NCBI GenBank assembly: GCA_051362555.1
Contig: CM120649.1
Coordinates: forward strand, 10,974,001 to 11,038,000
Source of the DNA: Lingula anatina
Lineage: Eukaryota > Animalia > Brachiopoda
Length of the DNA stretch: 64,000 nucleotides
Reading direction: 5' to 3'
Positions 3,080-58,221 of this stretch are shown piece by piece (the stretch's first letter is position 1; each line of letters starts with the position of its first letter). A model generated the notes under the pieces. It worked only from the letters and a program-made list of their open reading frames with translations, was not told where the DNA came from and ran no database searches. Both the position numbers and the translations under genes were made by a program.

Positions 3080-3258
3080 AAATACATAATTGCACTAGAT
3101 CTGATAGAAAGTGTACGTAACACAGAGATTTAGAATTTGAGCACAGATTCAGTGATCTACATGTATATCTATACTGTCAATGGATAGTTATATAATTTTT
3201 CTATAAAGAAAATTTTAAACATTTAGTAATTTTTACTTCAACAGAAATTCTGTTTGTA

Positions 3259-7503: not shown

Positions 7504-10500
7504 TTATGCTCTCGCGTTCTCTATTAGGGTCTCTAAAGAATGATCGGGGTTTCTAATTGTAGCTCCCACAAGTGCCATGAGTCGACTCATGAGGACGTGG
7601 ATTGTCTCATCATCCAGCAGATCGCAAGAACCCTGGAATTTAAGTTCAATGCGCTTCGGATGATCGGACTCGATGACTTCAAGTCTGGTTTCCCTGTAGA
7701 AATCTAACAAATAATGTTCTATGACAGCTCCTCCAAATAGGGCATTGTCTTCCTCAACCACGGCATTGTGGTAGTTAATGAGGTGCTTTCCAATGTTCGC
7801 AACTTGTTCCTGTGGCATTGTATCATAAATTAAGTCCGGAGGACAGAGAGCATTTTCAACACAGCATTTCTGAATTGTGCTCTTGTTGACTCTCAGGAAC
7901 TCTCGAAATGTTTGAGAGTGGTTGTCAAAGCGAACAGGAATAGGGAGAATGTTCACGCAATTCGTCATCACCCCTTCCAATCCCAGTGCAACACGCATGT
8001 CGACACTTCCTGATATGACAAATCGCTCAATGTTTGATGCAGCATGAAGCAAAAGTTGATAAACGCTACATATGAACTGAAAAAGTGTGAATTCCTCGCT
8101 GCTACGCCATCTTAACAAATGTATCATCATATCGTCGTCTATCTGCCCCGTTACAGTAACAGACTTTCCAAAAGTGCATTGTGGTAACACTTTTTTTGAG
8201 ACTCGCACAAGAGGAACTTCTTCCGGCAGATTGTTTTCCCAAAATACTTTTAATCTTGTCTTTTCTTCTTCTGTCAGATGACGATCTATTGCATCAGCTA
8301 AGCTGGGTATTGCGCTGACTTTACCCAAATGTGTTGTCAAAGGATTGCCTGCATGGACGCTACGCAGATAAGGAATGATATTATCCTGCAGCATTATCCT
8401 CATAGAATCAACATCCACCGCTATGTGATGGAACACAAATAACACCATTGGCGGTGTAGTGTTTACGAAGGCAACACGCCAAGGCGATTCGTTGGAACTG
8501 TTGAAAGGACGTCTCATAATCTCCTCTATACTTCGTTCCATGGAATCTTCAGTTCCGTCTATGAGCTGCACCTCCGGAGTATCATCTAAAAGAAACTCTA
8601 TCTTGTCTGTTCCTACTACAGCATTTCTTCTGTATCTCATCCTGAGGACTGGGTTATTTTCTGACACTAACTTTGTAATATTTTGCCAAAGCACAATGTC
8701 AGCAGCGTATCCCTGTTCTGGCAACCTGATTTTCACAATTAAGTGGTTTGCGAGATCTTCTTTTGTTCCCTGGCTGTTGTATTTCCATCGGTGTGTGAAG
8801 GCAGGTTTTTGAATAGACCTGTTAGGAGAATGTGGACTATGTTGCTGAACTCCATCCCCAATCAACTGTTCTATGAGGTCAGCAAATGTAGTTGGTTTTT
8901 GATCACTGCTCATGAGCACTGCGGGTATAAGGGAAACTTGGAATTGGTCCCTTACTTTGCGGATAAATGACATCATATTAAGAGAGTCAAAGCCCAGGTC
9001 ATTCAAAGATTGGTTTTCATCAATCTTACCGGGGCCCATCAGAATTCTCCCCGTCGTTCGCATCACCCAGTGTTTGATGTACTGTTTTCTGTCTTCACTT
9101 GACATATTTCTGATCTGTTCTATATTCAGAGTGACCTCTGCTGAATCGGCGTCATCATTTGAGTGGAAACTTTTGCTGTTGGTCTTGAAGGGAATGTCTG
9201 CGTACATGGCCTGTACATCATTGCGTAAAAGTGCATGGAGGAAACATTCCAATATGTCATCTTCATTTAATGCATTTATACCTTCATTTCTCAGTCTTTG
9301 CCCCGTATTTGGATTCTGATTTAGTAGGCCCAAATTTAGTGCACCCCAGTTGATGGACTGTGCAGGCAGATGCTGCTGTCTTCTGTAGTGAGCAAGGCTA
9401 TCCATGAATGCATTGCCGGCTCCGTAGTTTGTCTGGCCAGGGTTTCCCAGCAGTGATGCGACTGAGGAATGCATCACAAAGTAGTCGAGAGGAAGGTTGA
9501 TGGACAACTTGTGCAAGTTCCAGGAACCCTTTATTTTGGGACCTGTCGCTCTTTCAAATGTGTCTTGATTTTGATTTACAAAGGCACCATCGGCCAAAAC
9601 AGCAGCGCCATGAAAAATGCCTTTAATTGGGATTTTGCGTTGTGCAAGTCTTTCAAAAGCACTGGAAACTGAAGTGTAATTGGAAACATCAGCTTGCTCG
9701 TGAATAACCAGAACTTGGTGTTTGATTTCAAGATCTCGTCTCTCACGTAACTGATCTGGAGTTGGAGCAGAACGAGATATTGTAGCAATGACACCAACTT
9801 TATGTTTGGCTAAACACTTAGTGATAAGCTGACCTAGGCCTGTCAGACCGCCAATTACCACATAGCAAGAATCAGAACGAAACAGTCTGTTTTTGGAGGC
9901 AAACACATCTCCAGATGGTGGTACTGAAATGCTGTAAATTGCTTGGGTTTCCATGCAGACATCCACGATTGTATCTTCAACAGTGCTATTTCCAAATTCA
10001 AAACGTGCATTTGGTATCTTATTCATTGGCACAAATTGCTTCACTTCAGATTTCAGTGAAAGTTCTGCACTGAAAGCAGACAGCCACTCCACCGTCGTTG
10101 GCACCTTTGCTTTTAACTGATGCAGTGAGAACTCGTCTCGAATTGAGAAAGTCTTCTTTTTAGCATTTGGAAAATGTCTTCGAAGAGTCATGTATTCGTT
10201 GCCCTGAATAAATTCTTCAAAGACAAGAAGGCATTGTGCTTGGCTGAATAATTTCCCCAACTGGACAATTTCGGACCGGGTGATCTCAGTCATAACCAGA
10301 ACTGTCTGACATGGCTGGAGTGCATTATTCTTGGGTATGGCATGCCTGGAAAGACTTTCTAAATCGAAATTTGCAACACGGGCCATGTCTGTCAAGACCT
10401 GAACCAAAGGCAAGGTATCATCATTGTGTACAAGTATCAGGCGCTGACTTTTAGGTGATGCATTGTTGATACACCCAACTAGAATCTGTTTGGCAAGGTG

Positions 10501-13500
10501 AACAACAGGGAATAGTGGGACGACATCCCATGGAATGAGTCTGGACGAAATCACATATTCTTTTGGCACATGGACAACTGATTCAATTGGGGAAGGGCAA
10601 CAAATGAAAACTTCATCACCATTTGAAAGATCTGATTTCCCGTTAGTATCTGCAACTTTGCCGACCAAGGAGTATGAAATGACATCATGGTCAACTGACG
10701 GGGACATATACCAAAGATGACAAGGATTATCACTTTCTGAGCTGGTTGCAGGGGCACCTTTGATCTGATTAAGGAATGCATGGTGAACGTTTACTTTAAC
10801 ATCACCTGGGTCAATGAGCTTATTGTTGCATCTGGCTTGGTGCTGGAATCGCAGTTCGCTGTAACCATTTGGATCACTGGAGACAAGTCTCACAGGACAT
10901 CCTTCTTCAGCCACATTTTTTCGATATCTGGCATAGTTGAGATCCGTTGATGCCTTGGTTGGAGATGGTTTGTACACACTTTCTTCTTTAATCACAATTT
11001 CTGGGTGGCTTGCTACAAAGGAATCAGCATCTTCAAGGTAGCACCTGAGAGTTTCTGTCTCTTCAGGGGACCCAGAATAGAGATCAACAAGACTTATTTT
11101 CTCATATGTCTCCTCTTTTAAGAAGCATCTCACCATTCCCCAAAGCTGGGCACCAAATGGGGTAAAATGAGGTGATCCTTGAAAGTCGTGAAAACTCAGG
11201 CTTTGGCATGAAACTGTAAGGACGATGACGGGGATTGTAATTTGCATATCAATGAGAATCTTCATGAGAAGACGCAAACCTGTGCATGCTCTATGACATC
11301 CCTCAAACATTTTCTTTGTGTCCATTTTGACATCGTTGGCTGTTCTTGCTCCCCAAGCGTATATGATGTAATTTGGATCTTGCAAATAATTTGGAATGTT
11401 TCTTTCCATCCAATCTCCGAGTTCCCTTTCTCCGCTACATTCTGGAAAACCTATCCCACCCTCCTTCCACTGCACTGCACTATTCTTGTCCACCAAAACC
11501 AGCCCTTTACTTTGGTGTTTTGTCTTAGGCACATCTAGCTTTGCCCTGTGCCAGGTAAGATGACCAAGGAAATTCTCTGGTGTGTTCTTGCCGATCAATT
11601 TCATCACACAGTTCCGTAATTCTGCAATGATATCCCCTTTCATCGACAAAAGGAAGCAGTTGAAATGGGCTTTACCAGAACTGTGATGCATAATTCGACA
11701 GTAAGCCTTCATGATAGGGGAGGGCTTTTGCAGCACTCTTATGCTGCCAAGACTGATTGGGATCATTTTGGTATCTTGCCCTTGGTCATGCAATGGGCCT
11801 GAGCAGAAAACCCCTGCAGTTTGCAAGAGTGAATCTAGAACTGAAGGATGGATTGAAGTGCGGTACATATCTTCAATGATGCTCTGTGGAATTGCAAGTG
11901 TTGAGATGCATTCTTCTTTGTTCACTAAAAAGTTAGTAATAAATTTCATTGTCGGTCCATAATCAAACCCAGCGTGGTGTAGCCCATCGTAAATCTGGTC
12001 AACAGGCACATTTATCGTGCATCTGCTTTCAATGCCACGGATATCTGGTATAGAACTTTTTTGTACCTCATCCTCCCTCACAATTTCCCCTGCGGCATAT
12101 GTTTTCTTATCGTCCTTGATTGCAAAATGATAGATATCTTTTCCAATTTCACATGCCTCATTAAGCTCAAACACTACATGAACATCCATCTCACTGTCAC
12201 TGCTGACAAACAATGGCTCTACAAAATTGATCTGAACCAAGAAATATTCAGAAGGCCTGTTTGAAATCTCGGATACTGCAGTGAGAGCCACGTCTGCATA
12301 AAATGCACCAGGAACCACAATTCCTGCTCCTACCATAACATGGTCATAAATAAAAGGGGTTGAACTTTTATTCATGGTTACCACGTATTCTGGCTTGGAA
12401 CCTGGCATTCTTCGCATGTACGGATGAGACGAATGGCGCATGCCATATTGCTGCTCCCTTGCAGTACGCATGTGGACGATATTTGGTTTTGGGTCAAAAT
12501 GATGTCTAGGCTTGTCTCTTAGAGCCACTGGAATAGAAACAATTTTGTTCCACATTGGATTCACCCCTCTTTCGTACATCTCAGCTAATGAAAGAAGAAG
12601 GGGCTCTGCGCTCAGTCCCTTCTTCATAGATGGAAGCACAACCACGCCATTAGCATTTTCAAACTGATCAATGAAACGTCTAGAAACTGGTCTTGGACCA
12701 ATCTCCAACACAACGTTGGTGCACTCCTCCTGAAGCGCAGCTCCAATGGCCTCATTCAACAAAACAGGTTCTCTGACGTTCTCTCTCCAGTATGAACTAG
12801 GGACATGATCTTCTGTTTTCAAACATCTACCCGTCACCGTTGAGTATAATGCAATCTTTTGCGTCCTGTGCTTGACTTTGCGAGCGGACCCCAGTGTCAT
12901 ATCCTTAAGTTCAAGCTCAATATTCTGACCAGCAGCTTCCATGTGTTGAGAATGATAGGCAATATGGACGGGCAAGTCGATGGTATTCACATCGGCATAA
13001 TTTGGTTCACTGAGGATTTGTTTCAGTGAATTTATGTACGCAGGACTACCAGACACTGTATTTGACATGGGACTATTGGTAATTGCAATATCGACTTCCC
13101 CATTTAACCTATCTTGTAAAAGAGACCTAAGTCTATCAGTAGCAAAATTCTCTACTACCATCATGTGGCCCTTTCCTGCCTTTGACGCGTATTTTGTGCG
13201 TGTACAAATTATATGTGCTGCCTCTTCCAAGGACATGACACCTGCGCAGTAGAAAGCTGCCACTTCACCCACAGACTGACCAACAACAGCATGCGGTTCA
13301 ATGCCCCAGTGGCTCCACAATGCGACGAGACAAACCTGACAAGCAAATATCACTATTGGTTCGACTTCCGGATCAGACACATCTTTCTGTTCAACTAATT
13401 TATTTAAGACAGACCAACCTGTCTTGGGGGTTAGAATCTTGTCAATCTCTGACATTTTTGCCAAGAAGACATTGTCGAACATCAGCAACTGGTGACACAT

Positions 13501-14318
13501 TCCCTTCCATGTTGTTGCAACGCCAGAGAATAAGTAAATGACACGCACCTTTTTTCTCTCAGCATGAAACTGGTGTTTTAGACGCGAGGCGAGGTTGTCT
13601 TGAAGGTTTTGAACAGAGGTAGTGACCATTGCAAGCCGTACAGGATGGTGCGTCCTCCTGCATGTCGATGTATACATTAGCCTGTCAAGATCTTGATCCG
13701 TCAAACTTTTGATGGCAATATCATCTAATACTTCATTTGCAGAGCGTCTTAGGGAATTCACCGAGTTAGCAGAGAAGCAAATCACCTTATGGGGAAGAGG
13801 GGCACCAGAACCACCCAATCCAATGGCTAAGGAAGATCCATTCTGTTTGCGAATCTCGGCATCAAATTTGTTTAGAGGGGTGCTTACGGATGAATCAGAG
13901 TCCTTGGCAACAAAAGTTAATTCACTACGGGTGCTTGGAGCTTTTGGTAATTCAAACTGCTTCACGAATGCGGCAGCATTTGTTCCTCCGAATCCAAAAG
14001 AGTTAACAAATGCCATTCGTCTTTGGTCATTTGGACAATTCCATGATGTCATTTCTGTTGAAATTTTCAAGCCAAGGTCTTCAAATGGTATTTTTGGATT
14101 GGGTTTGCCATCTTTAAAGTGTAAGGAGGGCACAAAAAGACCATGTTTCATCATGAGAAGAACTTTGATCAGCCCTGCCACTCCAGCAGCTGATTCAAGG
14201 TGACCTATGTTCGTCTTCACGGAGCCTATAGTAATACTGGGCAATTGTCTCTTACCTCGTTCGAAAAACTGGCCGATTGAATTAGCCTCTGTCATATCTC
14301 CAACCTGGGTGCCGGTCC
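7504..14318 (-). CDS. PKS-A terminal 6.8-kb exon (KS C-terminus, AT, DH, psiER, KR, ACP, C domain)
   Basis: ORF 7504..14295 extended to the ttccag acceptor at 14318; stop TAA at 7504-7506. Confidence 0.95.
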
Positions 14319-15139
14319 CTGGAATAAAATCTTTTTTTGCCAGAAGTTGTGTATGGCATGTACATGTACCTATACATGTATCTTACACTTACAAACAAAT
14401 TACCAAAAAGGGCAAGATGCCCTAGATAGGATATCAAACTTGTCCCAAACAAATGCTTGGGCTAAGTGTCCTTTGGACGTACTACCAGGTTAGTAGGTAT
14501 AAAGTAATTTTTTCTACAGTCAACAGCTTCATACTGAAATAATTTTTAACCTCCAATATTTCGATAGTAGGAAGCAAAATATTACGTGACTTGGAGATGT
14601 TGTAGCCATTCATAAAAAAAAATATAGCAGCTGTTTCTAAATCTTTTTCTGTACTTTTAGAACATCAAACGCATTTGATAAGAGAAAATAACGGATGAAT
14701 GAACCTGACTTACCATGAGCCTCGACATACTGTATATCGTCGGGGTCAATGCCTTGTTTGTCTCTTAGCATTTTGAAAAGTGCCATCTGTTGGTCTTTTG
14801 AAGGACTGGTCATCGGGTGCGCGGTGGAACCGTCTTGATTCACGACCGATGACACCAAGCCCCAAATATTGTCATTGTTCTCCAGAGCCTGGGTGAATAA
14901 AACCAAAAAGTTAAACACAATCAAGTGAAGCGAAACATAATATTCATAAGACAGTTGACAAGTTTGCTTGGCAAGACTCAGGGAGTATAGACCTAATTAT
15001 GGTAGAGCAAGTGATCGTGATTGGTTGTATGCTCTTCAGACTTAAACTAGCTTCAGACTTAAACAGATCCATAAAGACCAGGCGTAAAAATAATTGCAAA
15101 GCCAGAAAAATCAGTTTTTGATAAAGTTGTAGCCTTAAT

Positions 15140-15188
<49 letters not shown>

Positions 15189-17849
15189 GGGGGGGGGCAC
15201 ATGCCTTATCCAGTTCCAGACATGACTGTAATAATGCTGCTTGAGGAAATAAACTGAACTTGAATAAGTTATCATAACTGAACATTTCACTTACGTCTTT
15301 CAGTCGTTTTAACACTACAATTCCACACCCCTCTCCGCGGGCATATCCGTCAGCTTCGGCTGTGAAAGCCTTACATTGGCCTGTCGGGGACACCATTCCT
15401 GACTTGCTAAGTGCAATATTAGCATACGGATTTAAAAAGCAGCTAACTCCCCCGCACACCACCATGTCGCAGTCTCCTGTAAGGTATGGATTATGGTTTA
15501 ACTGTGTGGGTTTACGGGGTGGGGTCACGTGCGTACCCTCTGCACGTATGCTTTGGTATGCTACAAGGTTATGTTTACTATGGGCATACAATTTTAATTA
15601 AAATCAGAACTTTCCTTCCTTACTTACTTAAGTTTTGATTTTGCGTAAATCGGCTGCCTATTAATTTAAATATACACCACATCAATACGTTTTAACTGAA
15701 AAGTATGTATATACAACCAGTTTTAATGGGGTATACCAGCTCTGGGGGTCTGCCGCTTGATGGCCTGTAAGTCCTAAATCTCGCGTAATCTCGAACGCGG
15801 TTTCACACCATCCTTCATCACGGATATTGTAAACACGCATCGCTGAATGCAAGTTATGCCCCTATTTCACACAGACCACGAATCCCACGAATCGCCAGGA
15901 ATTGACAAATTTCAGGATTCGTGAGGATTCATGAGATTTTGCCAATTTTCTGGTCTAATTCGACACGTTCTACGATTCAGTTACGATACAGGTGCGATAG
16001 TGTTACGAATATTCGTGGGATGCGGCTGGAGTCGTGAGATTTTGCCAATTTTCTGCTCTAATTCGACACGCTCTACGATTCAGTTACGATACAGGTGCGA
16101 TAGTGTTACGAATATTCGTGGGATTCGGCTGGAATCGCACGAATATTGTCCAGAAAGTCACTACGATTTTTTGGAAGCGGGAGTTCGTGGCCGAAATTTT
16201 GAACAGCTCAAAATTTTTGCCACGAGTTCCCGATTGATCAAGAATTGCAAGAACTGACTACGAAAGAAAGAACTGACGATTATATACGAATATGTTAAGA
16301 ACTCCACGAACTGTTTACGATTCTGAATACTGATACTGAAATTTTCGATTCCTGGCGATTCGTGGGATTCGTGGTCTGTGTGAAATAGGGGCATCAAAGT
16401 TTTTGTCCCTAATTCCTGTTTGTCAAGAAGTGCAAGAACTGACTACGAATATATACGAATCTGTTAAGTACTTCACGCACTGATTACGATTCAACCACGA
16501 ATCCTGAAATTTGTCAATTCATGGCCATTCGTGGGATTATTGGTCTGTGTGAAATAGGGGCATTAACCGAACGCGTTTCCGTGACAACGAGAAGCATTTG
16601 AAAATTATTTTTTTTCTTTTTACATCGTTCATGAATAATACGGTTACTTGCTATTTTTTTAAAAATCATTTGTGCAGGTGTATGTGTGCATGAAATCTGA
16701 TAATGTTTTTATTTGCATTGGTATGCTACGCTCAAATTTGGGTTATGTCGTCGCTGTATACATACATGTATATCACTGTCAGTGGAAATAAATATGGATA
16801 TATAATTGCCGATATAAAGGAAATCTGTTTAATTGACTTTTTAAATTAATTTCTGTTGACGTATCTAAAATGAATGAATACGACGTGAAATATGCCAACA
16901 ACATAAACTTGCATACCTTTGATCAAATATGTTGTCTCATCTCCAATTTGATGTGCCTTTTTTTACAAATAATCACCTCACATGTGTAAAGTGCTGTAAA
17001 CCGTGTTTATTATTCCAGAAACCATATCAAACATTATAAATGGTATACAAATACAAAATACTGGTAAAAGTATCTATATTTTATACCATTTATTTTGATT
17101 TATAGAGTGTTCCCTCTAAAATCCGATGTTCCACTGCAGAGAAGAAACAAACAAACAAAAAAAAAAATGTTTATGATGTTGAAGACGAATACCATTTTTA
17201 ATGGCATGTGTAGCATATACAGAATTAAGAGAAAAAATATCTGCATGTGAATAATCCTACTAAAGAAAGTTTTTTTTAAAGATGCATACAAAGTCAATTT
17301 TTTTGTCATAAAAACCAAACAAATGCTAGCATATAGTTTCAAGTAGTATAACTAAGGGAATTACCAAAATGCATTGTTTAATTTACCCGAAAATGATGTT
17401 TGAATGGATTTTTCTGCTAGCATTCTATGCTGTATGTCAATGGGCCAGAAAAGTAGGTCACGAAAGTAGGTTAAATTTCCGACCAAACATTTAAAGAAAG
17501 AAGCAGTCTAAAGCTCTTTTATGGCTGATTGAGTGATCTATTCAGTTTTTCCCTTGGCATGTCAAATTTATTTGAGTCGTATAAGAAACTAGTAGAAGTG
17601 GTGTACATATGTTACTGGGAATACACATTCCACCGATGCTCGGTTCGTATGTACCTTTAAGATAAATTACCACAAAAGACACAAATTTAATCTCTAGTCT
17701 AGCTGCTTATATATTTAATGCTTTTATTTGGATCACTGACAAAAATGAATAATCCTTAATACTTCTAATGGACTTTACTATTATTATTATTTTTATTTTT
17801 ATTATTACTATTATGTACTATGGGCCGGAGGCCTTGAAAAACTGAATAA

Positions 17850-17901
<52 letters not shown>

Positions 17902-18708
17902 GAAACAACACCCTTATAATCTGGACCAACTCCTTTATGGTCTTTAGGAAGAATGGGACTATATCCCACAAAACAAAACTATAACGCTGTTGGAGGCATA
18001 CCGTGCAGCCTAGGTGAGAAAATTTTCGTGCGCAGTAAACACACGCGCTATTAGACACGTGTGTAAATTTGGTGTCTTTTGCTGGTGTCTTTTTAATTTA
18101 ATGGACATTTGTTTACCTTTGTTGAAGTCCTTATAGAAAATCAGATTTGAGGGGACACATATATAGCTTCAAACAAATATTATTAAATCACTTATAAAAT
18201 GTTATAAAATATTATAAAAGCATCTTCACCGATATTTAATTTTTTCTGTACCATAATTTTGATATGTAACTATTATCTGGAATAAAAAGCATAGTGTAAA
18301 AAAGTTTACAGATATGAGGTGATGATAAATAAATAAAAGCAAGCGGAATGGGAGTTTATTAAGATTTGGCAAGATTTAAATCCACAGGTACAGATATTTT
18401 TAGATTATGAAATCGCATAGATTAATTACGTCTCTTATAAAGGCATTTTAATTGTAATTATGAAAGAAGACCTCAAGTGTAACTTCTCAACATAATATCA
18501 AAGCAAATCAGCACAAACGAATATTTTTTACCTGAAAATTATTATTTTTACAAAATTTTGTCCCATTTGACCTTGAAATATAGATGAAAAGTCAAATCTA
18601 TGGTCATATTTTAAATCACGACACATGACTTTTGGTCCGACCTCTTTAGTAACTTTTCCATGATTCCTTCGGTTTGGGAGATATTTAGCTTTTACTATTC
18701 AAAATATA

Positions 18709-18762
<54 letters not shown>

Positions 18763-19912
18763 AGAGTACATTTTGGGAAAATGGTCCGATCAAGCCGATT
18801 GTCAAACAAGAATGCCCTCATACTATCTTTTCACCGTATGTGGAACGCCATCACTTCGCAAACGTTACAGAACTTTTAACTTCACGCATGGAGGCAACAG
18901 GTGGGTTCTCCAACCGAGAAGATACTGTGCAAAATACTAAAAGGTGGCTTTAATTTTGTACTATGGTTAGTTTATTCATTGGTTTTACAATCAGTAATTT
19001 TTTGTGAAGAGCATTCTTTTAGGAGTTGAATAAAAACATTATGGTTTATGACATTATTTTTTGTATCACTTTATGCATTACGTTAGGGTGAAACATTTTT
19101 GGTAGGGGAGTATTTCAAAGCAATTCCTACATCACATGCTATGCGCAGTTGTACAACATTGGGCGTATACAAACGGTTTCTCCTGTATGCTTTGTATAAA
19201 TCCTTGCGTATCCTTACCGTTTTGTAAAGCATTTGAAGCCGCATTTATGGCAACTAGTGACGAGGAACAGGCAGTGTCTATGGTCATAGAGGGACCTCGA
19301 AGACCAAAGACATACGAAACCCTGGCTGAGAGTATGCTACTTGACACTCCGGTCACTGAGTACTCATTTATGGCTGCAAGATCTTGCATGATGTCTTTGA
19401 AACCATCGTTCATGCTACCTGAATAGTTTGGGGAGATATAAAATGGTCAGTTAGTTTCATTTGGTCATAATACAAGTTAAAAGATCGTTTTGCAGCGGTA
19501 CCACATTCACTACTCCAGCGGCTGCCACATATACTGTAACATCGAAATATTGACTGAAAAAATTGACTTATATTTTGATTACATAATTGAACATTGTTAT
19601 ATTGCCATATGATCAGAAAATGTTACAATTTAAGTTATTGGAAAGTTCGGCGTACAGCAACTTTGGGTGTTAATAAAACGGGGGGAATGGAAAATATTGA
19701 TGTATTCAGTTACACTATACCTATGTATACGCCTGTGTTGCTATCACGGACGGTTTCAAGCGGAATCCCAGCATTTTCAAGTGCCATATAGCAGCAGTCC
19801 AGAACCCATCTCTGCTGGGGGTCCATGCGCTGTGCTTCCTCATCATTTATGCCGTACATATCATTATCAAACCACTCATAACTGGGGGAAAAGAGGATAA
19901 AAGACTTACAAA

Positions 19913-19981
<69 letters not shown>

Positions 19982-20346
19982 GAACCAATTTTACTCATAT
20001 AATATGTATGTTACAGAAATATCATTTAATTTCATTTGAGAAATTTAGCTAGATCACATATATATGTAATTATGACAACGTGTTACTGACACAAAAAGCA
20101 TAGTAATTCAGTCACTTCTTTTATTAAGTAAAGTTACTTTTTGATGACTCCAGCCCTTTTGATGCATGTCTTCCCGGTCGAGAGCCGATCAGAATCATAG
20201 TACAGGTCATTATCCCAACGATCTTTGGGGATATCCACAACGTGATTTTCGCCATTGCACAACACTTTCCAAAACTCGTCTAAGTTATCTGCGCCGGGAA
20301 AACGACACCCTACTCCGACAATGGCTAAAGCATTGAGATCCTCCAT
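7504..20346 (-). CDS. PKS-A: spliced iterative type I polyketide synthase, KS-AT-DH-psiER-KR-ACP-C (about 2580 aa)
   Basis: Hand-spliced exons 20346-20138 (acceptor at 20352), 19881-19721, 19418-19218, 15476-15295, 14888-14714 and 14318-7504. All introns are GT-AG and phases join into one 7743-nt frame. Motifs: [23 protein letters not shown] (KS Cys), [24 protein letters not shown]; AT GQSVG and AYHS; [13 protein letters not shown] and HPSVLD; KR GGLTGLG and GQTNYGAGN; ACP GFDSL; C domain HHIAVD. Confidence 0.93.
14714..14888 (-). CDS. PKS-A KS exon (ALENNDNIW...YVEAHG), 175 nt
   Basis: ccag acceptor and gtaagt donor; same size as the PKS-B exon 50514-50688. Confidence 0.92.
15139..15197. 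repeat. (GT)n microsatellite plus poly-G in a PKS-A intron
   Basis: Direct reading. Confidence 0.9.
15295..15476 (-). CDS. PKS-A KS exon ([11 protein letters not shown]...[20 protein letters not shown]), 182 nt
   Basis: acag acceptor and gtaagt donor; canonical KS DGYxRGEG motif. Confidence 0.93.
15857..16563. mobile_element. Harbinger-like MITE with internal ~103-bp tandem duplication and a duplicated right end, in a PKS-A intron
   Basis: Left TIR tgcccctatttcacacagaccacgaatccc; right TIR copies end at ~16393 and ~16563 (gtgtgaaataggggca); tta flanks. Confidence 0.75.
17849..17901. repeat. (ATT)n microsatellite
   Basis: Direct reading. Confidence 0.9.
19218..19418 (-). CDS. PKS-A KS exon with catalytic Cys ([16 protein letters not shown]), 201 nt
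   Basis: ttcag acceptor and gtaagg donor; DTACSSS motif. Confidence 0.94.
19721..19881 (-). CDS. PKS-A KS exon (YEWFD...MDPQQRWVL...TGVYIG), 161 nt
   Basis: cccag acceptor and gtatag donor; MDPQQR motif. Confidence 0.92.
19915..19976. repeat. (TA)n microsatellite next to a PKS-A splice acceptor
   Basis: Direct reading. Confidence 0.9.
20138..20346 (-). CDS. PKS-A first identified coding exon ([19 protein letters not shown]...)
   Basis: ATG at 20346, 6 nt after a ttaag acceptor; gtaact donor. An unrecognised upstream exon is possible. Confidence 0.88.
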
Positions 20347-35140: not shown

Positions 35141-35159
35141 TATACCTTCTATATGTACA

Positions 35160-42295: not shown

Positions 42296-42333
42296 TTAAC
42301 CGATCAAGCTTATTTTCGAACTTGATCTATATA

Positions 42334-46421: not shown

Positions 46422-49400
46422 GTAAGTTATATTAAGATGTTTTAAAATAGACTTTTCACAAGTTTCACTAAAAGATTCATATCTATAAACAAGTAATCGG
46501 TGTGTACTCCAATACTACAAATATTGTTTGTCCGTCTTTTAGTCCTTGAATTTAGAAGCTTACAAGCGTTAGCTCTACACATAACTTTTAAGAACTTAGA
46601 ATTTGCTTACGTAATTCAAATTGTGTCTATTCAATCATGTAAAAAGTACTGAAACTTTCAAAATTCAGAGATGGACACTGATATACTATATAGCCGAGGT
46701 AATACAGAAAACAAATACTTTCAACGACCCAAGAAACACAAAATAATCCTTGCAGAAGAAAATGAACAAGTAAAGAGGATAGAACTTGACAACATGGTAG
46801 ATATTAACACATTACTTGAATAAATATAATATTTATACACTGTATATACTCTCCTTTCAACTGAGTATGAAAATGCATGATACGTTTTCAACATTACATC
46901 TCTTCTGCATGCAAGTGCTTCAGGGTATATGCTTTTTAACATGGTCGTTTCTGAGCTGTTTCGCTTTCATCACTAGTGTTGTTTTGTAAAACTTTGCTGG
47001 GTGTCATACTGGGCCGGTGAGACCGGAATTCAGGTCATCTTCTCCTATATGGACCTCGGTGTCCAGTAACTGTAGCCAGTATTTCTGTCATAAATATGGG
47101 TAAAATTTTTATTCCTGGCGGACCTGAATCCTGTTGACATAAGTCAGTGTAATGAAGGTTCACTCTTTTTATCATGTCCGACCCATTATACATGAAATAG
47201 CAACGTAAATACTACTGTCAGCAATGTATATGCATTTATTGTCGTTTAACGGTTCAACGATGACCTGTCTTAGGAGGAAGGGCATTTGAGAGTTATACAG
47301 ACGGTGAACAGATCTTGTGAGAAGGGGAAAGATCATTCGAGGTCGATCAGCGCTGCTGTACAGACACTGGTTCTCCACTTTATTCCTTATAAAATTATTT
47401 TGTATAAATACAGTTGTATGAAAAAATTGGTTTTCTTAGGTGTTGTAAAGTTATCTGATTTATATAAGTAAGAACTGTACCAGAATTGGAATTGGAATTG
47501 GACTGTGCGGGAGATCTAACTCTTATGACTGGTGACGGAGCAAAGGCTTTATGTGAGGCACATCGACTCCTTGCTAATTATTAATAAATAATGTTGATGT
47601 TTGAAGATGAAGTGGTTTTAGTCGTTGAGAGTAATTAGACGATAAATAATTTATATACGTTGAAGCATTAACGAATTAGAATATAACATTTTTAGTAAGC
47701 ACATGCAATTGCTTCGTACAATCACCAATTTGCCCACTCTTTGGCATGGTTGTTATAGGCGTTGCAATTATGTACTTGTGTGATGTATACAGAACTACGT
47801 TGGTTAACACTTCCAGAAAGTATTGATGTATACTAGATGTGATTTGCCTTCATTTTTTATGCTTCTGTCATGTTTGATTGGACTTCTTATTTTGGTACGT
47901 TGAAAATTTGTGTGATCCCTTTACGCCCCCCGCCAATACTCCCCCGCATTGATACTTCCCCGCACCGCTACTGCCCATACCGATCCAGCATACGGCTTTC
48001 CCCAAAATCGACATGCAACAATCGCTTAGTTGAAATTTTCTTCATGCGCACAGGCATTCTAATTTGGATATAAATACAAACGAACATTAGGCGAAATGAC
48101 TTACCTTTTAGAGCAAATTATGTCTGATCTACTGGTCTCTCTCCCTGTATCCGACATTGGACCAAGAACCATGGCACACTACATTCCATGTGTTGCTGTA
48201 CTGTAGCAGTTATTCTCTTGTTTACCTTTATTTAGGACTCAACGGAGGATCGAAATGCTATAGCCATTGTCGGCGTAGGGTGTCGTTTTCCCGGCGCAGA
48301 TAATTTAGACGGTTTTTGGAAAGTGTTGTGCAATGGCGAAAATCACGTGGTGGACATCCCCAAAGATCGTTGGGATAATGACCTGTACTATGATTCTGAT
48401 CGGCTCTCGACCGGGAAGACATGCATCAAAAAGGCTGGATTCATCAAAAAGTAACTTAACTTTACAAAAGCAGTGGCTTAATTGCTATGCTGTTTGTGTC
48501 AGTTACATGTTCTCATAATTATATGTACATGTGAACTAGCTGTATTTCTCAAACGAAATAATAAAAGCATAATATCTTTACGTTACTACTTTGCTTTCTC
48601 ATTCCACAAAATTGGATACGAAAGTTGCATTTTATCTTTCTAACATCATTTCATATGCAGTATTTTAATCCAAATCTTAGCCTAAATCTGGGCCCTAGAT
48701 GTCTTCAATCCTTTTTCCAGTTATGAGTGGTTTGACAATGACGTGTACGGCATAAATGATGAAGAAGCAAAACGCATGGACCCCCAGCAGAGATGGGTTC
48801 TGGACTGCTGCTATATGGCACTTGAAAATGCTGGGATTCCGCTTGAAACCGTCCGTGATAGCAACACAGGCGTATACATAGGTATAATACAAATTATATA
48901 TCACGCTTTTTTCCATCCACCTGTTTTATAAACACCCGGATGCATGGATCTTTAAAGTTGGAATTGTAATAAATCTTGCTCATATAGCATAATAACAATG
49001 TTCAATCATGTAATCAAAAATTTAAGTCAATTCTGTAGGCAATAATGTTTATCCATTGCTATAGTTTGTACATAGCCAATCCGAGCAGCCGCTGAAGTAC
49101 ATGTATGTGGAACGCTTTGAAACGTGCGTTTTGAATAATGACCAAACGAAACCAAGTAAACATTTGACATCTCCCTAAACTATTAAGGTAGCATGAACGA
49201 TGATTTCAAGGACCTCATGCAAGATCCTGAAACCATGAACGAATACTCAGTGACTGGAGCGTCAAGCAGCATCCTATCAGCCAGGGTTTCGTATGTCTTT
49301 GGCCTTCGAGGCCCCTCCATGACCATAGACACTGCCTGTTCCTCGTCACTAGTTGCCATAAATGCGGCTTCAAATGCTTTACAAAGCGGTAGGGTACATC

Positions 49401-52400
49401 CAGTATACGCACAGTGTGGGAAAATTATACATAAATGACGGAGTATATGATTACGATGTTAGATATTATGATACATGTATATGAGTATATGATATACGTA
49501 TATGACGTATGAGTTTTTTTTGAAAACGTACATATATCAGAATGGTTCATATATCCATTGTGCATTTAAATTATATTTTGTTATGAAGATTTATATACGC
49601 ACTTATGAATTGAAATTGTTTGTATACATACTTTCAACTAAAAGCTGTTTTTAAATATCCATATTTGTACGTAACTAATTTACGCATCAAATCTAATGCA
49701 AATTTGGAAAGCTTTCAAAAAGTAGATGGCCGCTTGTACCTTTACCATGTTCTACCATTCATTACACTACAACAAATACTGCATGGGAGTACACAAGAAC
49801 CTCCTCGTCCCCCAACACATACTCACACCAACACAGTTGAACCATAATATTTACATTAAAGGAGACTGCGACATGGTGTTGTGTGGAGGAGTTAGCTGCA
49901 TTTTGAACCCGTACGCTCATATTGCACTTAGCAAGTCAGGAATGGTGTCCCCGACAGGCCAATGTAAGGCGTTTACCGCCGAAGCTGACGGATATGCCCG
50001 CGGAGAGGGATGTGGGATTGTAGTGTTAAAAAGACTGAAAGACGTAAGTGAAATGTTCAGTTATAATGGCATATCCAGTTTCAGTATATATCATCAAGCA
50101 GCATTATAAAAGTCGGCTGTGGCACAGGATAAAGCATGTGCCCCCTCCCCCAATAAAGTTTGGCGCTAAACGGATCTGGTATTTTCTGTCTTTGAATTCT
50201 TTTTATGTCTGGTATTTATAGACATTGTTTCATATTACCCAAAAAATTATATTCAAACAAATTTTTGCTTGCTTTTTGTGTTGTATGTATTTGGGGCAGA
50301 TAAGAAGTTAATTCACATAAGAAGTCCAAATTCAACCAAATATTTGAAAGAGTACATTTATGGCTGATTGAGTGATTTTTTCCCTTGGCATGTCTTCTTT
50401 ATTTGAGTTACATCGGAAACTATAATGGAAGTGGTTTATATGCGTTTTTGGGAATCCACACTCCAACGACATTCGGTTCAGGGGTGTTATGTCATTTTGT
50501 GTATTTTCACCAGGCTCTGGAGAACAATGACAATATTTGGGCCCTGGTGTCATCGGTCGTGAATCAAGACGGTTCCACCGCGCACCCGATGACCAGCCCC
50601 TCAAAAGATCAACAAATGGCATTATTCAGAAAGTTAAAAGACAAACAAAGCATTGACCCCGATGATGTACAGTATGTTGAGGCTCATGGTAAGTGGTGTT
50701 CATTCATCCCGCTTATTAAAAAACGGCCACTGTTATATCTTTTATTGACTATACTTGATGCTCTCAAAACGATGATAACATTTTTAAATGGATACTTGAT
50801 TTTTTCTGAACGGCTACACCACCACAATTCACTTAAAATTTTGCTTCCTACGCACCTGTTAGTACGTTCAAAGGACCCCATCCACTTGCATATGTTTGGG
50901 ATTTTATATATACGTAATCTTCCGCTTCTTGGTGATCAATATGTATGTAAATCCAAAGCTACATGTTATATACATCGCCAGGTAAACACATTTTTTTCAG
51001 GAACAGGCACCCAGGTTGGAGATTTCACCGAGGCTAATTCAATAGGCCAGTTTTTTGAACGAGGTAAGAGACAATTGCCCAGTATAACTATAGGCTCCGT
51101 GAAGACAAACATAGGTCACCTTGAATCAGCTGCTGGAGTGGCAGGGCTGATCAAAGTTCTTCTCATGATGAAACATGGTCTTTTTGTCCCCTCCTTACAC
51201 TTCAAAGATGGCAAACCCAATCCAAAAATACCATTTAAAGACCTTGGCTTGAGAGTTTCAACAGAAATGACATCATGGAATTTCCCAAATGACCAAAGAC
51301 GAATGGCATTTGTTAACTCTTTTGGATTCGGAGGAACAAATGCTGCCGCTCTCGTGAAGCAATTTGAATTACCTGAAGCACCCAGCACCTGTAATGAATT
51401 AGCTTTTGTTGCCAAGGACTCTGATCCACCCCTAAATACCCCTGGTACCGAGGTTTGCAAACAAAATGGATCTTCGTCAGCCATTGGATTAGGTATCACA
51501 GGCGCCTCAATTCCCCATAAGGTGATTTGCATCTCTGCCAACTCGGTGGGTTCCCTGAGACGCTCTGCAAATGAAATCATAGATGATATTACCAACAAAT
51601 GCTTGACAGATCAGGACCTTGACATGCTTATGTATACGTCTACATGCAGAAGGACGCACCATCGTGTTCGGCTCGCAACAGTCACCACTTCTGTTAAAGA
51701 CCTTCGGGACAAGCTCTCATCATGCTTAAAACGACAGTTTCATGTTGAAAGAAAGAAGGTGCGGGTCATATACTTATTCTCTGGCGTTGCAACAACATGG
51801 AAGGGAATGTGTCACCAGCTGCTGATGTTCGACAAAGTCTTTTCAGCAAAAATGTCAGAGATTGACAAGATTCTAACCCCCAAGACAGGTTGGTCTGTCT
51901 TGAATAAATTAGTTGATCAGGAAGATGTGTCTGATCCAGAAGTCGAACCAATAGTGATATTTGCTTGTCAGGTTTGTCTCGTCGCATTGTGGCGCCACTG
52001 GGGCATTGAACCGCATGCTGTTGTTGGTCAGTCTGTTGGTGAAGTGGCAGCTTTCTACTGCGCAGGTGTCATGTCCTTGGAAGAGGCAGCACATATAATT
52101 TGCACACGCACAAAACATGTGTCAAAAGCGGGAAAAGGTCAAATGATGGTAGTAGAGAATTTTGCTACTGAAAAACTTAAGCCTCTTTTACAAAATAAGT
52201 TCAATGGGGCAGTCGAAATTTCCATTTTCAATAGTCTCATGTCAAATACAGTGTCTGGTAGTCCCGAGCATATAAGAACTTTGAAAGAAATTCTCGGGGA
52301 ACAACATTATACTGCTGTGAATACCATCGACTTGCCTGTTCATATTGCCTATCATTCTCAACACATGGAAGCTGCTGGCCAAAACATTGCGTTTGAACTT

Positions 52401-55400
52401 AAGGATATGACATTGGGAACGGCTCACAAAGACATGCGCAATACGCAAAATATTGCATTATACTCAACGGTAACGGGAAGATGTTTGGAAACAGATGATC
52501 ACGTCCCTAGTTCATACTGGAGAGAGAATGTCAGATGCCCTGTTTTGATGAGTGAGGCCATTGGAGCTGCGCTTCAGGAGGAATGCACCAACGTTGTGTT
52601 GGAGATTGGTCCAAGACCAGTTTTTGGACGTTTCATTGATCAGTTTGAAAATGCTAATGGCGTTGTTGTGCTTCAATCTATGAAGAAGGGACTGAGTGCA
52701 GAGCCCCTTCTTCTTTCATTAGCTGAGATGTACGAAAAAGGGGTGAATCCATTGTGGAACAAAATCGTTTCTATTCCAGTGGCTTTACGACAAAAGCCTA
52801 GACATCATTTTGACTCAAAAGCAAATATCATCCACACGCGTACTGCAAGGGAGCGTCAATATGGAATGCACCACTCTTCCCACCCGTACATAAGACGAAT
52901 GCCAGGCCCCTCTCCAGAATACGTGGCAACCATAAATAAAAAATCAACCCCTTTTATTTATGACCATGTTATGGTAGGAGCCGGAATTGTGGTTCCTGCC
53001 GCATTTTATGTAGACGTGGCTCTCACTGCAGTATCCGAGCTCTCAAACAGGCCCCCTGAATTTTTCTTGCTTCAGATTAATTTTTTGGAACCATTGTTTG
53101 TCAGCCGTGACAGTGAGCTGGATGTTCATGTAGTTTTTGAGTTTGATGAGGCACATAAAATAGGAAAAGATGTTTATCCTGTTGCAATCAAGGACAATAA
53201 GAAAACATTTGCTGAAGGAAAAATTGTTAGGAAAGATGACATACCGAAAAGGACCATGCTTGATATATGTGATATTGAAAGCAGATGCACAACAAATTTG
53301 CCTGTTGACCAGATTTACGATGGACTGCATTACGCTGGGTTTCATTATGGATCATCAATGAAATGTATCACTGACTTTTTAGTGGCCAGAGATGAATGCA
53401 TCTCAGCATTTGAAATCCCCCAGCATATCATTGAAGATATGTACCGCACTTCAATCCACCCTTCAGTTCTAGATTCAGTCATGCAAACTGTAGGGGTGCT
53501 CTGCTCAGATCCATTGAATGACCAAAGACAAGTAACCAAAATAATCCCAGTTAGCATTGGCAGCATATCAGTGCTTCAAAAGCCCTCCACAACCATGAAA
53601 GCCTACTGTCGAATGATGTGCCACAGATTGGGTAAAGCCCATTTCAACTGCTCCCTTTTGTCAGTGAATGGGGATGTCATTGCTGAATTGCGGAACTGTG
53701 TGATGAAATTGTTTGGCAAGAACACACCAGAGAATTTCCTTGGTCACCTTACCTGGGACAAGGTAAATTCAGACAGGCCTTATGCAAAACACCAGAGTAA
53801 AGGCATAGTTTTTATCGACAGGAACAGTGCAGTGGCGTGGATGGAAGGTGGGCTAAGTTTTCCAGAATGCAGTGAAGAGGAGGAGCTCAAAAACTGGATG
53901 GAAAGAAACCTTTCAAGTCGTCTGCAACATTCAAAATACATAGTGTATGCTTGGGGAGCAAAAACAACCAGCGATGACGAAATGGACACACAGGAAATGT
54001 TTGAGGGATGTCAGAGAGCATGCACAGGTTTGCGTCTTCTCATGAAGATTCTCATTGAAATGCAAATTACGATCCCCGTCATCGTCCTTACAGTTTCATG
54101 CCAAAGCATCAGTTTCCAAGATTTTCAGGGAACACCTCATTTTAGCCCATTTGGTGCCCAGCTATGGGGAATGGTGAGATGCTTCTTAAAAGAGGAGACA
54201 TATGAAAAGATAAGTCTCGTTGATCTCTTTTCTGGATCCCCTGTTGAGACAGAAACACTCAGGTGCTACCTCGAAGATCCTGATTCCTTCGTAGAAAACC
54301 ACCCTGAAATTGTGATTAAAGAAGACAGTGTGTACAAACCATCTCTAACCAAGGCAATGACGGATCTCAACTATGCCAGATATCGAAAAAATGTGGCTGA
54401 AGAAGGATGTCCTGTGAGACTTGTCTCCAGTGATCCAAATGGTTACAGTGAACTGCGATTCCAGCACCAAGCCAGATGCAACAATGAGCCCATTGACCCA
54501 GGTGATGTTAAAGTGGACGTTCATCATGCATTCCTTCATCAGATCAAAGGTACCCCTGCAACCATCTCAGAATATGATAATCCTTGTCATCTTCGGTATA
54601 TGTCCCAGTCAGGCGACCATGGCGTCATTTCATACACTTTGGTTGGTAAAGTTGCAGATGACAACAGGAAATCAGATCTTTCGAATGGTGATGAGATTTT
54701 CACTTGTTGTCTTTCCCCAGTTGAGTCCTTTGTCCATGTGCCAAAAGAATGTGTGGTTTTGTCCAGACTCATTCCACGGGATGTGGTCCCAATATTCCCT
54801 GTTGTCCACCTTGCCAAACAGATTTTAGATTGGTGTATCAAACATGCGTTCCCTGGGAGACAGTGTCTGATACTGGTACACAATGATGATAATTCACCTT
54901 TGGTTCAGGTCTTGACAGACATGGCCCGTGTTGCAAAATTTAATATAGAAAGCCTGTCCAAACATGCCTTATCCAAGAGCGTCGGCCTGCAGTCATGTCA
55001 GACAGTTCTGGTTATGACTGAGATCACCCGGTCTGAAATTGTCCAGTTAGGGAAAGTATTCAGCCAAGCACAATGTCTTCTATTCTTTGAAGAATTTATT
55101 CAGAGCAACAAATACCGGGCTCTTCAAAGATCTTTTCCAAATGCCCAGAAGAAGAGATTCTCAATTTATGATCAGTTGTTAATGCATCAGTTAAGGGCAA
55201 AGGTACCAATGACAGTGGAGTGGCTTTGTACTTACAGTGCAGACCTAGCACTGAACTACGAACTGAAGCAATTTGTGCTGACGAATCAGTCACCAAATAT
55301 GCGTTTTGAATTTGGAAATGAAACTGTGGCAGATACAGTCATGGATGTCTGCATGGAAACCCAATCAATTTACAGCATTTCAACTACACAATCTGGAGAT

Positions 55401-57803
55401 GTGTTTGCCCCAAAGAACAGACTGTTTCGTTCTGATTCCTGTTATGTGGTTATTGGTGGCCTGACGGGCCTAGGTCGGCTTATCACTGAGTGTTTAGCCA
55501 AACACAAAGCTGGTGTCATTGCTACAATATCTCGTTCTGTTCCATCTCCAGATCAGTTACGTGAGAGACAAGATCTCGAAATCAAACACCATGTTACAAT
55601 TGTCCACGAGCAAGCTGATGTTTCCAATTACACTTCAATTTCCAGTGCTTTTGAAAGACTTGCACAACGTGGAATCCCAATAAAAGGCATTTTTCATGGC
55701 GCTGCTGTTTTGGCTGATGGAGCCTGTTTAGATCAAAATCAAGATTCATTTGGAAGATCAACAGGTCCCAAAATCAAGGGTTCATGGAACTTGCACAAGT
55801 TGTCCATAAACCTTCCTCTCGACTACTTTGTAATGCATTCCTCAGTCACATCACTGCTGGGAAACCCTGGCCAGACAAACTACGGAGCCGGCAATGCGTT
55901 CATGGACAGCCTTGCTCACTATAGAAGACAGTGCCATCTGCCTGCACAGGCCATCAACTGGGGCGCTCTGAACTTGGGTCTTCTAAAACAGAACCCAAAT
56001 ACAGAACAGAGACTAAGAAAAGAAGGGATAAATCCATTAAATGAAGAAGACATATTGGAATGTTTTCTCCATGCACTTCTGTGCAATGATGTACAGGCCA
56101 TGTACGCAGATATTCCCTTCAAGATCAACAACAAAAGTACCTCCTCAACTGATGACACTGATTCAGCAGAGGACACTCTGAATATGGAGCAGATCAGAGA
56201 TTTACCAAGTGGAGACAGAAAACAGTACATCAAACACTGGGTGATGCGAACGGCAGGAACTATTCTGATGGCTCCCAATGAGGTGGATGAAAACCAATCT
56301 TTGAATGATTTGGGTTTTGACTCTCTTAATATGATGTCATTCATTCGCAATGTAAGGGACCAATTCCAAGTTTCTCTTACACCCGCAATGGTGATGAACA
56401 GTGATCAAAAACCAACTACATTTGCTGACCTCATTGAAAGATTGATTGGAGTTGGATTTCAACGACATAGTCCACATTCGCCTGACAGCCGCATCCAAAA
56501 GCCAGCCTTCACACACCAATCTATATTCAACATTCAGGGAACAAAAGAAGACCTCGCAAACCACATTATTGTAGAAATCAGGTTGCCAGAACCGAGTCTT
56601 GCTGCTGACATTGTGCTTTGGCAAAATATGACAAGGATGTTGTCAGAAAAAAACCCCACCCTTAGGATGAGATACAGAAGAAGTGGTGGGCTAAAAACAG
56701 ACAATATAGAGTTTCTTTTGGATGATCCTCCAGAGGTGCAGCGCATAGACGGAACGGAAGACTCAATGAAGCAAAGTATAAAGGATATTAAGAGGTGTGC
56801 TTTCGACAGTTCCAAAGAATCCCCTTGGCGTGTTGCCTTCGTAAACACCACACCGCCAGTTGTGTTACTTGTGTTTCACCACATAGCGGTAGATGTGGAT
56901 TCTATGAGGATAATGTTCCAAGAAAATGTTCTTCCTTATCTGCGTAATGCCTCGGCAGGCATTCCTTTGGCAAAACATTTGGGTAAAATCAGCGCAATAC
57001 CTAGCTTAGCTGATGCCTTAGATCGCCATCTGACCGAAGAAGAAAAGGCTAGATTAAAATCATTTTGGAGAAATATTCTGCCTAAAAGAGTACCTCTGGT
57101 GCAAGTCTCAAACAAAGCAGTACCTGAATGCACTTTTGGCAAGTCTCTAACTGTAGAGGGGCAGATAGGCGGCGATTTGATCGAGGATTTATTCAGATGG
57201 CGTGATAGCGATGAATTCACCCCTTTTCAGTTCATATGTAGCATTTATCAACTTTTACTTCATGCTACATCACAAATTGGAGGGTTTGTCATATCCGCCA
57301 GTGTCAACATGCGTGTCGCACTAGGAATGGAAGGAGTGATGACGAATTGTGAGAACATTCTGCCTATTCCAGTTCACTTTGAGAGCCATTCTCAAACATT
57401 CAGGGAGTTTCTGAAAACCAACAAGAACATTATTCGTGAATGCTGTGTCGAAAATGCCATTTGTCCTCCGGAGCTAATATATGATGAAATGCCCCAAGAA
57501 CAAGTTGCAAACATTGGAAAGCATCTCATTATCTACCACAGAGCAGTGATTGAGGAAGACGAGACCCATTTAGGAGGAGCTGAAATAAAGCATCATTTGT
57601 TTAAATTCTACAGGGAAACCAAACTTGAAGTCATCGAGTCTGATCATCCGAAGGGCCTTGAACTTAAATTCCAAGGTTCTTGCGATTTGCTGGATGGTGA
57701 GACGATCCGCGTCCTCATGAGGCGACTCATGGCACTAGTGGAAGCTACAATTAGAAACCCCGATCATACTATAGAGACCCTAATAGAGAACGCGAGAGCA
57801 TAA
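46386..57803 (+). CDS. PKS-B: spliced iterative type I polyketide synthase, KS-AT-DH-psiER-KR-ACP-C (about 2590 aa), paralog of PKS-A
   Basis: Hand-spliced exons 46386-46421 (putative), 48236-48450, 48721-48881, 49188-49388, 49862-50043, 50514-50688 and 51001-57803. Introns are GT-AG and join into a 7773-nt frame. Same catalytic motifs as PKS-A ([52 protein letters not shown]). Confidence 0.92.
48236..48450 (+). CDS. PKS-B KS exon ([21 protein letters not shown]...), 215 nt
   Basis: tttag acceptor and gtaact donor; homologous to 20352-20138. Confidence 0.92.
48721..48881 (+). CDS. PKS-B KS exon (MDPQQR), 161 nt
   Basis: ttccag acceptor and gtataa donor. Confidence 0.92.
49188..49388 (+). 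CDS. PKS-B KS exon with catalytic Cys (DTACSSS), 201 nt
   Basis: ttaag acceptor and gtaggg donor. Confidence 0.93.
49862..50043 (+). CDS. PKS-B KS exon (ADGYARGEG), 182 nt
   Basis: aaag acceptor and gtaagt donor. Confidence 0.92.
50514..50688 (+). CDS. PKS-B KS exon (...YVEAHG), 175 nt
   Basis: ccag acceptor and gtaagt donor. Confidence 0.92.
51001..57803 (+). CDS. PKS-B terminal 6.8-kb exon (KS C-terminus, AT, DH, psiER, KR, ACP, C domain)
   Basis: tttttttcag acceptor ending at 51000; uninterrupted frame to TAA at 57803; collinear with the PKS-A terminal exon. Confidence 0.95.
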
Positions 57804-58221
57804 CATTTGCCAGTTGCTCTGTATAACGAAAAGGTTGGTCGTTTTAGTTTTTCAAATGACACAATTGGCTTGTTTCTCAGGACATTATTTAGAGTATGGC
57901 AATCTTTGTAAATAGTGTACCAGCAATGTAAATTTTATGCACTAGTAAATGGCCAAGGAGATTTCATCCTTTTTTGTTACTAACGACAGCCTGGTACACA
58001 AAGCACGCCTGTTGCTTTATGAAGCATTTTTGTTTTCTAGAGAGCGAATAAGCATAACTTAGTGTGTATTTTAAGTATGCAGCGTATGGCTTGCAGGATA
58101 TATGTCCTCTCTCTTTCAGAAAAAAAAATCGATCATTATAACATTTGATACTTTTTATTCCCAAATCAAAAATACATATACATTAAGCAAGTTGCCGTGA
58201 TTGTAAATAGTGGAATGTACT

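Follow-up and report, generated by a model that had tools for sequence, protein, structure and literature searches.

The window analysed here, a 64,000-nucleotide stretch of the genome of the brachiopod Lingula anatina, contains two intact polyketide synthase (PKS) genes in divergent orientation, PKS-A on the minus and PKS-B on the plus strand, which lie approximately 26 kb apart. According to the ORF list of the window, their longest open frames extend over 7504-14382 (minus) and 50376-57803 (plus). Gene models (Table 1) were obtained by mapping the nearest database proteins, L. anatina RefSeq LOC106161238 and LOC106151792, onto the window, with PKS-A being 94.4% identical to the former (row P0005) over 2312 aa and PKS-B 94.8% identical to the latter (row P0006) over 2576 aa. 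Each gene carries five to six introns, all of them within or before the KS, followed by one exon of 6.8 kb, in which the paralogs are 79% identical, and both proteins display the domain order KS-AT-DH-psiKR-psiER-KR-ACP-C. A pseudogene reading was rejected in view of the open frames, the GT-AG introns and an overall dN/dS of 0.35, and so was a bacterial contaminant or recent transfer, since introns are present and the KS+AT tree described below matches animal phylogeny.

Table 1 Features of the two PKS genes, given in window positions
Feature	Position	Strand	Details
PKS-A gene	7504..20346	-	6 exons, 2580 aa; GT-AG model, single terminal stop
PKS-A exons	20346-20138, 19881-19721, 19418-19218, 15476-15295, 14888-14714, 14318-7504	-	
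PKS-A pseudo-ER	10033..10935	-	degenerate 16-residue loop at 10440-10393; 77% identical to PKS-B there
PKS-A C domain	7522..8680 (approximate limits)	-	Pfam PF00668, E 9.7e-20; HHIAVD 8430
PKS-B gene	46671..57803	+	7 exons, 2620 aa; GT-AG model, single terminal stop
PKS-B exons	46671-46796, 48236-48450, 48721-48881, 49188-49388, 49862-50043, 50514-50688, 51001-57803	+	
PKS-B KS	48242..51368	+	split by five introns; Cys 49337, His 50685, His 51117
PKS-B AT	51765..52712	+	Ser 52032 (GQSVGE), Arg 52107, specificity motif IAYHS 52344
PKS-B DH	52905..53732	+	His 52965, Asp 53472
PKS-B structural psiKR subdomain	53733..54377	+	AlphaFold model and fold matches; without methyltransferase insert
PKS-B pseudo-ER	54390..55262	+	MDR/ER fold; glycine-rich NADPH loop replaced by 16 residues at 54867-54914
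PKS-B catalytic KR	55437..55982	+	GGLTGLG 55455, LAD 55710, Lys 55770, Ser 55839, Tyr 55881
PKS-B ACP	56220..56417	+	phosphopantetheine Ser 56322 (GFDSL)
PKS-B C domain	56625..57782	+	Pfam PF00668, E 2.4e-14; HHIAVD 56877; weak PDB match to NRPS C-fold domains

The start ATG of PKS-A reads ACG in PKS-B, where an extra upstream exon adds about 44 residues (46671-48250). Identity to the reference proteins varies along both genes: PKS-B is 97-100% identical to LOC106151792 until the psiER-KR linker and 78-94% beyond (55330-57800, from about residue 1754), and PKS-A displays 84-99% identity to LOC106161238 before this linker and 99-100% after it (7504-20346). This mosaic points to either a crossover within the linker between additional paralogs or chimeric reference models.

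Between and around the PKS genes, Pfam recognized only reverse-transcriptase fragments (2 of the 21 ORFs scanned). A large direct duplication of 90-93% identity (29351-34217 and 35156-39983) lies between the genes, and a broken LINE-type reverse transcriptase occupies 34188-35167. Tandem units of 103 bp and 367 bp occur in the 3.7-kb third intron of PKS-A (15856-16566) and downstream of PKS-B (58218-58938), respectively, the latter also resembling the 3' flank of PKS-A. Additionally, a dispersed repeat is present in three copies of 70-88% identity (3257-4860, 42332-43921 and 61752-62675), which is probably a transposon remnant.

Among four RNA runs, one contained 110 PKS-B reads spread over 27 of 30 bins, and the other three contained 3-10 reads each; two reads span the last PKS-B intron. 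Most of these reads are 90-99% alike to the PKS-B stretch. PKS-A as their source was rejected, as reads and PKS-A agree at only 15 of the 38 sites tested; the source is an allele, paralog or population that has diverged. For PKS-A, read counts in the four runs were 25, 5, 5 and 0; most of these reads are 90-95% alike, and they are probably due to cross-mapping. A PKS-B-like gene is thus transcribed and spliced at a low level, which says nothing on pigment.

Pseudo-enoylreductase and accompanying domains

On both frames, Pfam detects the KS C-terminus, AT, DH, KR, ACP and condensation (C) domains, whereas the roughly 570 residues that separate DH from KR remain unassigned. In the initial annotation, an enoylreductase (ER)-like stretch lacking its NADPH-binding motif had been proposed here for both paralogs, and every ER-like motif quoted was recovered at its position within stop-free frames of 2475 (PKS-B) and 2292 codons (PKS-A). 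In PKS-B, these are GDVKV (54501), VHHAFL (54519), VGKV (54642), GDE (54687), VHVPKE (54732) and LILVHNDD (54867). The ER-sized stretch itself gave no Pfam family, also when isolated, and no PDB sequence match at E ≤ 10; hence, its identity had to be addressed by other tests.

One of these was a profile comparison by hhalign of 73 animal-type rows (the two window proteins plus the 71 animal-type rows among 120 matches listed, with the 49 bacterial-type rows left out) against 26 motif-bearing ERs drawn as controls from the same 120 matches. Here, 238 columns were aligned with P 80% and E 1.4e-5, LILVHNDD falls on VLIHSATGGVG, and 13+10 residues are absent directly after the loop, the nucleotide-binding subdomain being about 23 residues shorter than in the motif-bearing ERs. 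Modelled by AlphaFold (pLDDT 85), the 301 residues of the stretch form a beta-rich part at the N-terminus together with a Rossmann-like part. The top Foldseek match of this model is the CurK ER (E 7e-9, TM 0.59), and structural alignment by VIA gave Z scores of 15.3-15.8 with the CurF, JamJ and CurK ERs (rmsd 3.5-3.8, 252-262 of 301 residues aligned), the CurF ER being best (Z 15.8, rmsd 3.8, 262 aligned). The modelled stretch therefore has the MDR fold of active ERs, and Atlas leads of 0.81-0.88 to MDR families go in the same direction as leads only. Taken together, model and profile show that the similarity to ERs reflects homology and did not arise by chance. What it does not have is the glycine-rich HxAxGGVG NADPH loop of active PKS and FAS ERs, and motif loss, profile register and AlphaFold model alike support the proposal that the ER is dead. 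With LILVHNDD lying on the VLIHxAxGGVG loop, the domain is hence classified as a pseudo-enoylreductase (psiER), which is almost certainly inactive as a reductase. At the same time, purifying selection acts on psiER, its dN/dS between the paralogs being 0.43 compared with 0.44 for DH, 0.97 for the linker and 0.35 overall. The loop sequence is not conserved among the relatives, and the query ER stretch contains only one invariant column, a Gly of the GroES-like part.

Catalytic residues of the other domains are all present in both paralogs, namely Cys-His-His of KS, Ser and Arg of AT, His and Asp of DH, the Gly motif, Lys, Ser and Tyr of KR and the Ser of ACP, so that the earlier description of KR (GGLTGLG, PK, YxxxN, LAD) and DH (His, Asp) as intact holds. 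Further KR motifs of PKS-B are GPKIKG (55764) and YGAGN (55881), and its LAD motif is presumably of the B-type. The His motif of DH contains a one-residue insertion seen only in the four Lingula rows. The AT specificity motif AYHS is that of most relatives and of parrots, the serine motif reads GQSVGE in 57 of the 73 rows compared with GHSVGE in vertebrates, and the AT Arg follows the Ser by 25 residues, the same spacing as in the kakapo protein, where it corresponds to R644, the residue mutated in blue budgerigars. No methyltransferase (MT) was found, as already noted from the motifs: Pfam gave no match, and the AlphaFold model of the 796-aa psiKR-ER-KR region (pLDDT 81.5) is free of an inserted domain, with the MT-less Mas-type modifying region as best match (E 5e-40, 703-716 residues aligned). 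Intact KS, AT, DH, KR and ACP together with a lacking MT are the combination seen in MuPKS-type enzymes.

Both proteins end in a C domain, which had been absent from the initial annotation. Its motif HHIAVDV retains both His and the Asp of HHxxxDG, with V replacing G. Among 55 C-bearing rows, the Asp is found in 55, the second His in 23 and both His in four, all of which are from Lingula. From these motifs, the terminal C domain with HHxxxD probably releases the chain onto an acceptor, and the many C-bearing relatives without the second His, more than half, may be inactive or act differently. A C-terminal C domain (residues 2116-2554) is also found in P0362 from the hemichordate Glandiceps talaboti, a protein that likewise has a pseudo-ER and, outside Lingula, matches the psiKR-psiER region most closely. 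Hence, the C-domain form is not confined to lophotrochozoans.

Relatives and age of the motif loss

A GGVG-like pattern occurs in none of the 73 animal-type rows, compared with 26 of 27 ER-Pfam-bearing controls. It was likewise missing from all 120 rows listed in a vertebrate search (two of them common to the first set) and from 22 further domain-bearing representatives out of 24 new ones, which include a hemichordate with C domain, amphioxus, a chiton, an annelid and bivalves. The ER loop of kakapo and golden parakeet, the two parrots standing in for MuPKS among the matches listed, reads TLG(V/I)ISTEPSSV(L/F)CHVL and is homologous to the Lingula loop, and fish members of the clade carry the same degenerate loop. 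An ER loss specific to Lingula was therefore rejected, the loss being clade-wide (molluscs, annelid, hemichordate, amphioxus and vertebrates). As the simplest reading of these distributions, loss of the ER motif would be old and shared, having occurred once before the protostome-deuterostome split. Inactive ERs in metazoan PKSs have been noted before (PMC6334511).

In a quick IQ-TREE analysis of KS+AT, covering 41 rows without FAS, AFPK, echinoderm, cnidarian or fungal (including LovB) ones, four Lingula and 15 mollusc rows group together (SH-aLRT 98) beside 11 vertebrate rows including the parrots, and 11 bacterial rows stand apart from the animal rows (SH-aLRT 100). Rows obtained in a KS-only homologue search were multimodular PKSs, bacterial for the most part. 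By the family profile, Mas and further PKSs rank higher than FAS and EcPKS chains. Median identity to the non-Lingula rows, mostly from molluscs, amounts to 54% for KS, 23% for DH and 16% for psiER. With identity being low outside KS, chain length and the programming of KR and DH may thus differ.

In molluscs, Lin et al. 2024 (PMC10764717) have described a PKS clade with few and N-terminal introns, some members of which carry a C domain while others lack it. The Lingula enzymes resemble its C-domain members in their single KS-AT-DH-(ER)-KR-ACP-C module, in their few N-terminal introns and in KS/AT grouping with molluscs as nearest tree neighbours, while they differ by the brachiopod host and by the full HHxxxD, found in four of 55 rows and in Lingula only. 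Hence, the pair represents members of a known animal PKS clade, of the mollusc C-domain type. With the vertebrate iterative PKSs (the psittacofulvin synthase MuPKS of the budgerigar, GgPKS1 and ApPKS), the sister group of the Lingula and mollusc rows in the tree, it shares the degenerate ER loop, AYHS, the AT Arg, the missing MT and GGLTGLG in KR. However, the vertebrate enzymes have about 2100 aa and end at ACP without a release domain, while the Lingula proteins continue into a C domain, and their AT serine motifs differ as given above. The C domain makes it less likely that the Lingula enzymes are MuPKS orthologues of the same architecture, whereas the notion that they work like MuPKS is unaffected. 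Medaka OlPKS, which triggers otolith mineralisation (PMC4604110), has the same Pfam-visible domains, no detectable ER and six exons; it differs by having no C domain and by serving calcium carbonate deposition, while the shell of Lingula consists of calcium phosphate (PMC9057340). Fungal LovB likewise combines an MDR-fold pseudo-ER acting as scaffold with a terminal condensation domain, but has an active C-MT and the trans-ER partner LovC (PMC7870829). EcPKS1 and EcPKS2 are also iterative animal enzymes with dead ER and polyene products, yet they belong to the FAS-like PKSs and feature a psiMT, dense introns and pyrone release, EcPKS1 being methylmalonyl-specific (PMC7280274).

Predicted product and competing explanations

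The best prediction for the main product is an unmethylated conjugated polyene acyl chain, which we regard as fairly probable; the same degree of confidence applies to a conjugated linear polyene as main product. In this mechanism, an iterative enzyme would load malonyl-CoA by its AT, and each cycle would run through KS-catalyzed condensation, KR-catalyzed ketoreduction and DH-catalyzed dehydration and then halt at the enoyl stage owing to an ER unable to bind NADPH. Since the cycle would stop after dehydration, one trans double bond would be added per round and the double bonds would be conjugated. The pseudo-ER would be retained as a scaffold, as described for LovB, and the terminal C domain might hand the polyene chain to an amine or alcohol acceptor, as its motif suggests. 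Malonyl as extender is highly probable, while a visible shell or tissue pigment in Lingula as the outcome is rather doubtful.

The product had been proposed from the dead ER and the missing MT, two arguments that fared differently. The polyene part gains support by homology, through the parrot loop and the AT motif: MuPKS makes C14, C16 and C18 polyenes owing to its inactive ER (PMC6334511), chicken GgPKS1 likewise makes polyenes in yeast, and MuPKS alone in yeast yields the same pigments as found in feathers (PMC7036892). It is weakened by enzymes of the LovB type, in which a dead ER combined with a C domain is complemented in trans. Absence of an MT, in turn, is insufficient for predicting an unmethylated chain, as EcPKS1 introduces methyl groups via methylmalonyl-CoA (PMC7280274); it is the AYHS motif common to parrots that supports this part of the claim. 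Counterpoints to the polyene reading are the DH His-motif insertion restricted to Lingula and the C motif ending in V instead of G.

Among the competing explanations, a short or partly reduced product absorbing in the UV only, such as a pyrone-capped triene or tetraene or a hydroxylated amphiphile serving as mineral-nucleation or defence lipid, would also be compatible with a dead ER. EcPKS1 offers a precedent, its ER being dead, reduction stopping late and short trienes and tetraenes being released as pyrones (PMC7280274), but it belongs to the FAS-like AFPK clade and not to that of the Lingula enzymes (PMC10764717). Medaka OlPKS, with six exons and KS-AT-DH-KR-ACP detected by Pfam, forms a product that nucleates otoliths and can be extracted, and that went undetected by HPLC (PMC4604110); fish members of the clade of the Lingula enzymes carry the same degenerate loop. 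As the characterised members of the Lingula PKS clade yield linear polyenes, however, and a role in mineralisation is compatible with a polyene, we consider this explanation unlikely. It is improbable that a separate trans-acting ER completes reduction in vivo, giving a partly or fully saturated product, as LovC does for LovB, an enzyme that combines a pseudo-ER with a condensation domain and requires its partner (PMC7870829). A trans-ER has been left open for the duck PKS (PMC6334511), yet MuPKS alone in yeast gives the feather pigments, and an oxidoreductase domain was found by Pfam in none of the 21 other window ORFs of at least 95 codons, bearing in mind that animal genes need not cluster and that short exons escape such a scan.

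Loading of methylmalonyl-CoA by the AT would lead to a methyl-branched polyene (polypropionate) without any MT. EcPKS1 demonstrates that animals can introduce methyl branches without SAM (PMC7280274), and the prevailing serine motif GQSVGE departs from the vertebrate GHSVGE. In contrast, the AT carries AYHS like the parrot enzymes and not the VASHS of the Mas-type, and the serine motif follows GxSVGE, whereas EcPKS1 has GHSMGE, which leaves this explanation very improbable. A psiER still acting as reductase through an unconventional cofactor site could draw on the retained fold and on purifying selection, but with its loop glycines gone, a loop unconserved among relatives, a subdomain shortened by about 23 residues and the GroES-like Gly as the single invariant column, we deem it extremely improbable.

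Relevance for unmethylated shell polyenes

As neither the enzyme type nor the logic of a dead ER is new, the Lingula pair alone is unsurprising. The weight of the finding lies in the open origin of unmethylated shell polyenes, for which these enzymes provide a testable de novo source. Polyenes of modern mollusc shells have generally been assigned as unmethylated (bioRxiv 2023.05.17.541181). A paper from 2026 gives conjugation lengths of about 10-19 with methyl bands missing and describes shellfish as unable to make polyenes de novo, with demethylated dietary carotenoids being the assumed source (PMC12980248). As a tentative proposal, which may hold but which we consider on balance doubtful, animals would themselves make the unmethylated shell polyenes seen by Raman, de novo and by means of the pseudo-ER PKS lineage. 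The C-domain forms of this lineage, of which those of Lingula are the most complete, would link the polyene through an amide or ester bond to a matrix acceptor of shell or tissue. If true, such a matrix-bound amide or ester would explain the resistance of shell pigments to extraction. In the literature covered, which leaves out most subscription papers, no paper on a Lingula PKS and none tying an invertebrate PKS to shell polyenes was found, although the Lingula proteins or the shell-polyene idea may already figure in Cooke et al. 2017 or in the supplementary sequence lists of Lin et al. 2024. The same literature yielded neither a measured product for an invertebrate member of the family nor evidence of such pigments in Lingula. 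With their full HHxxxD, the intact Lingula genes represent practical substrates for probing whether polyenes are made as predicted and what the C domain does.

Two species studied in PMC12980248, Ruditapes philippinarum (P0045) and Mytilus galloprovincialis (P0025), carry pseudo-ER PKS members. The same is true for Batillaria (P0056) from the superfamily Cerithioidea, in which unmethylated polyenes have been reported (bioRxiv 2023.05.17.541181). In brachiopods, pigments were bleached off before measurement in the Raman work described in PMC9057340. In a pearl mussel, two adjacent pks genes are upregulated in the mantle tissue of purple nacre and were read as naphthoquinone genes (PMC12652611).
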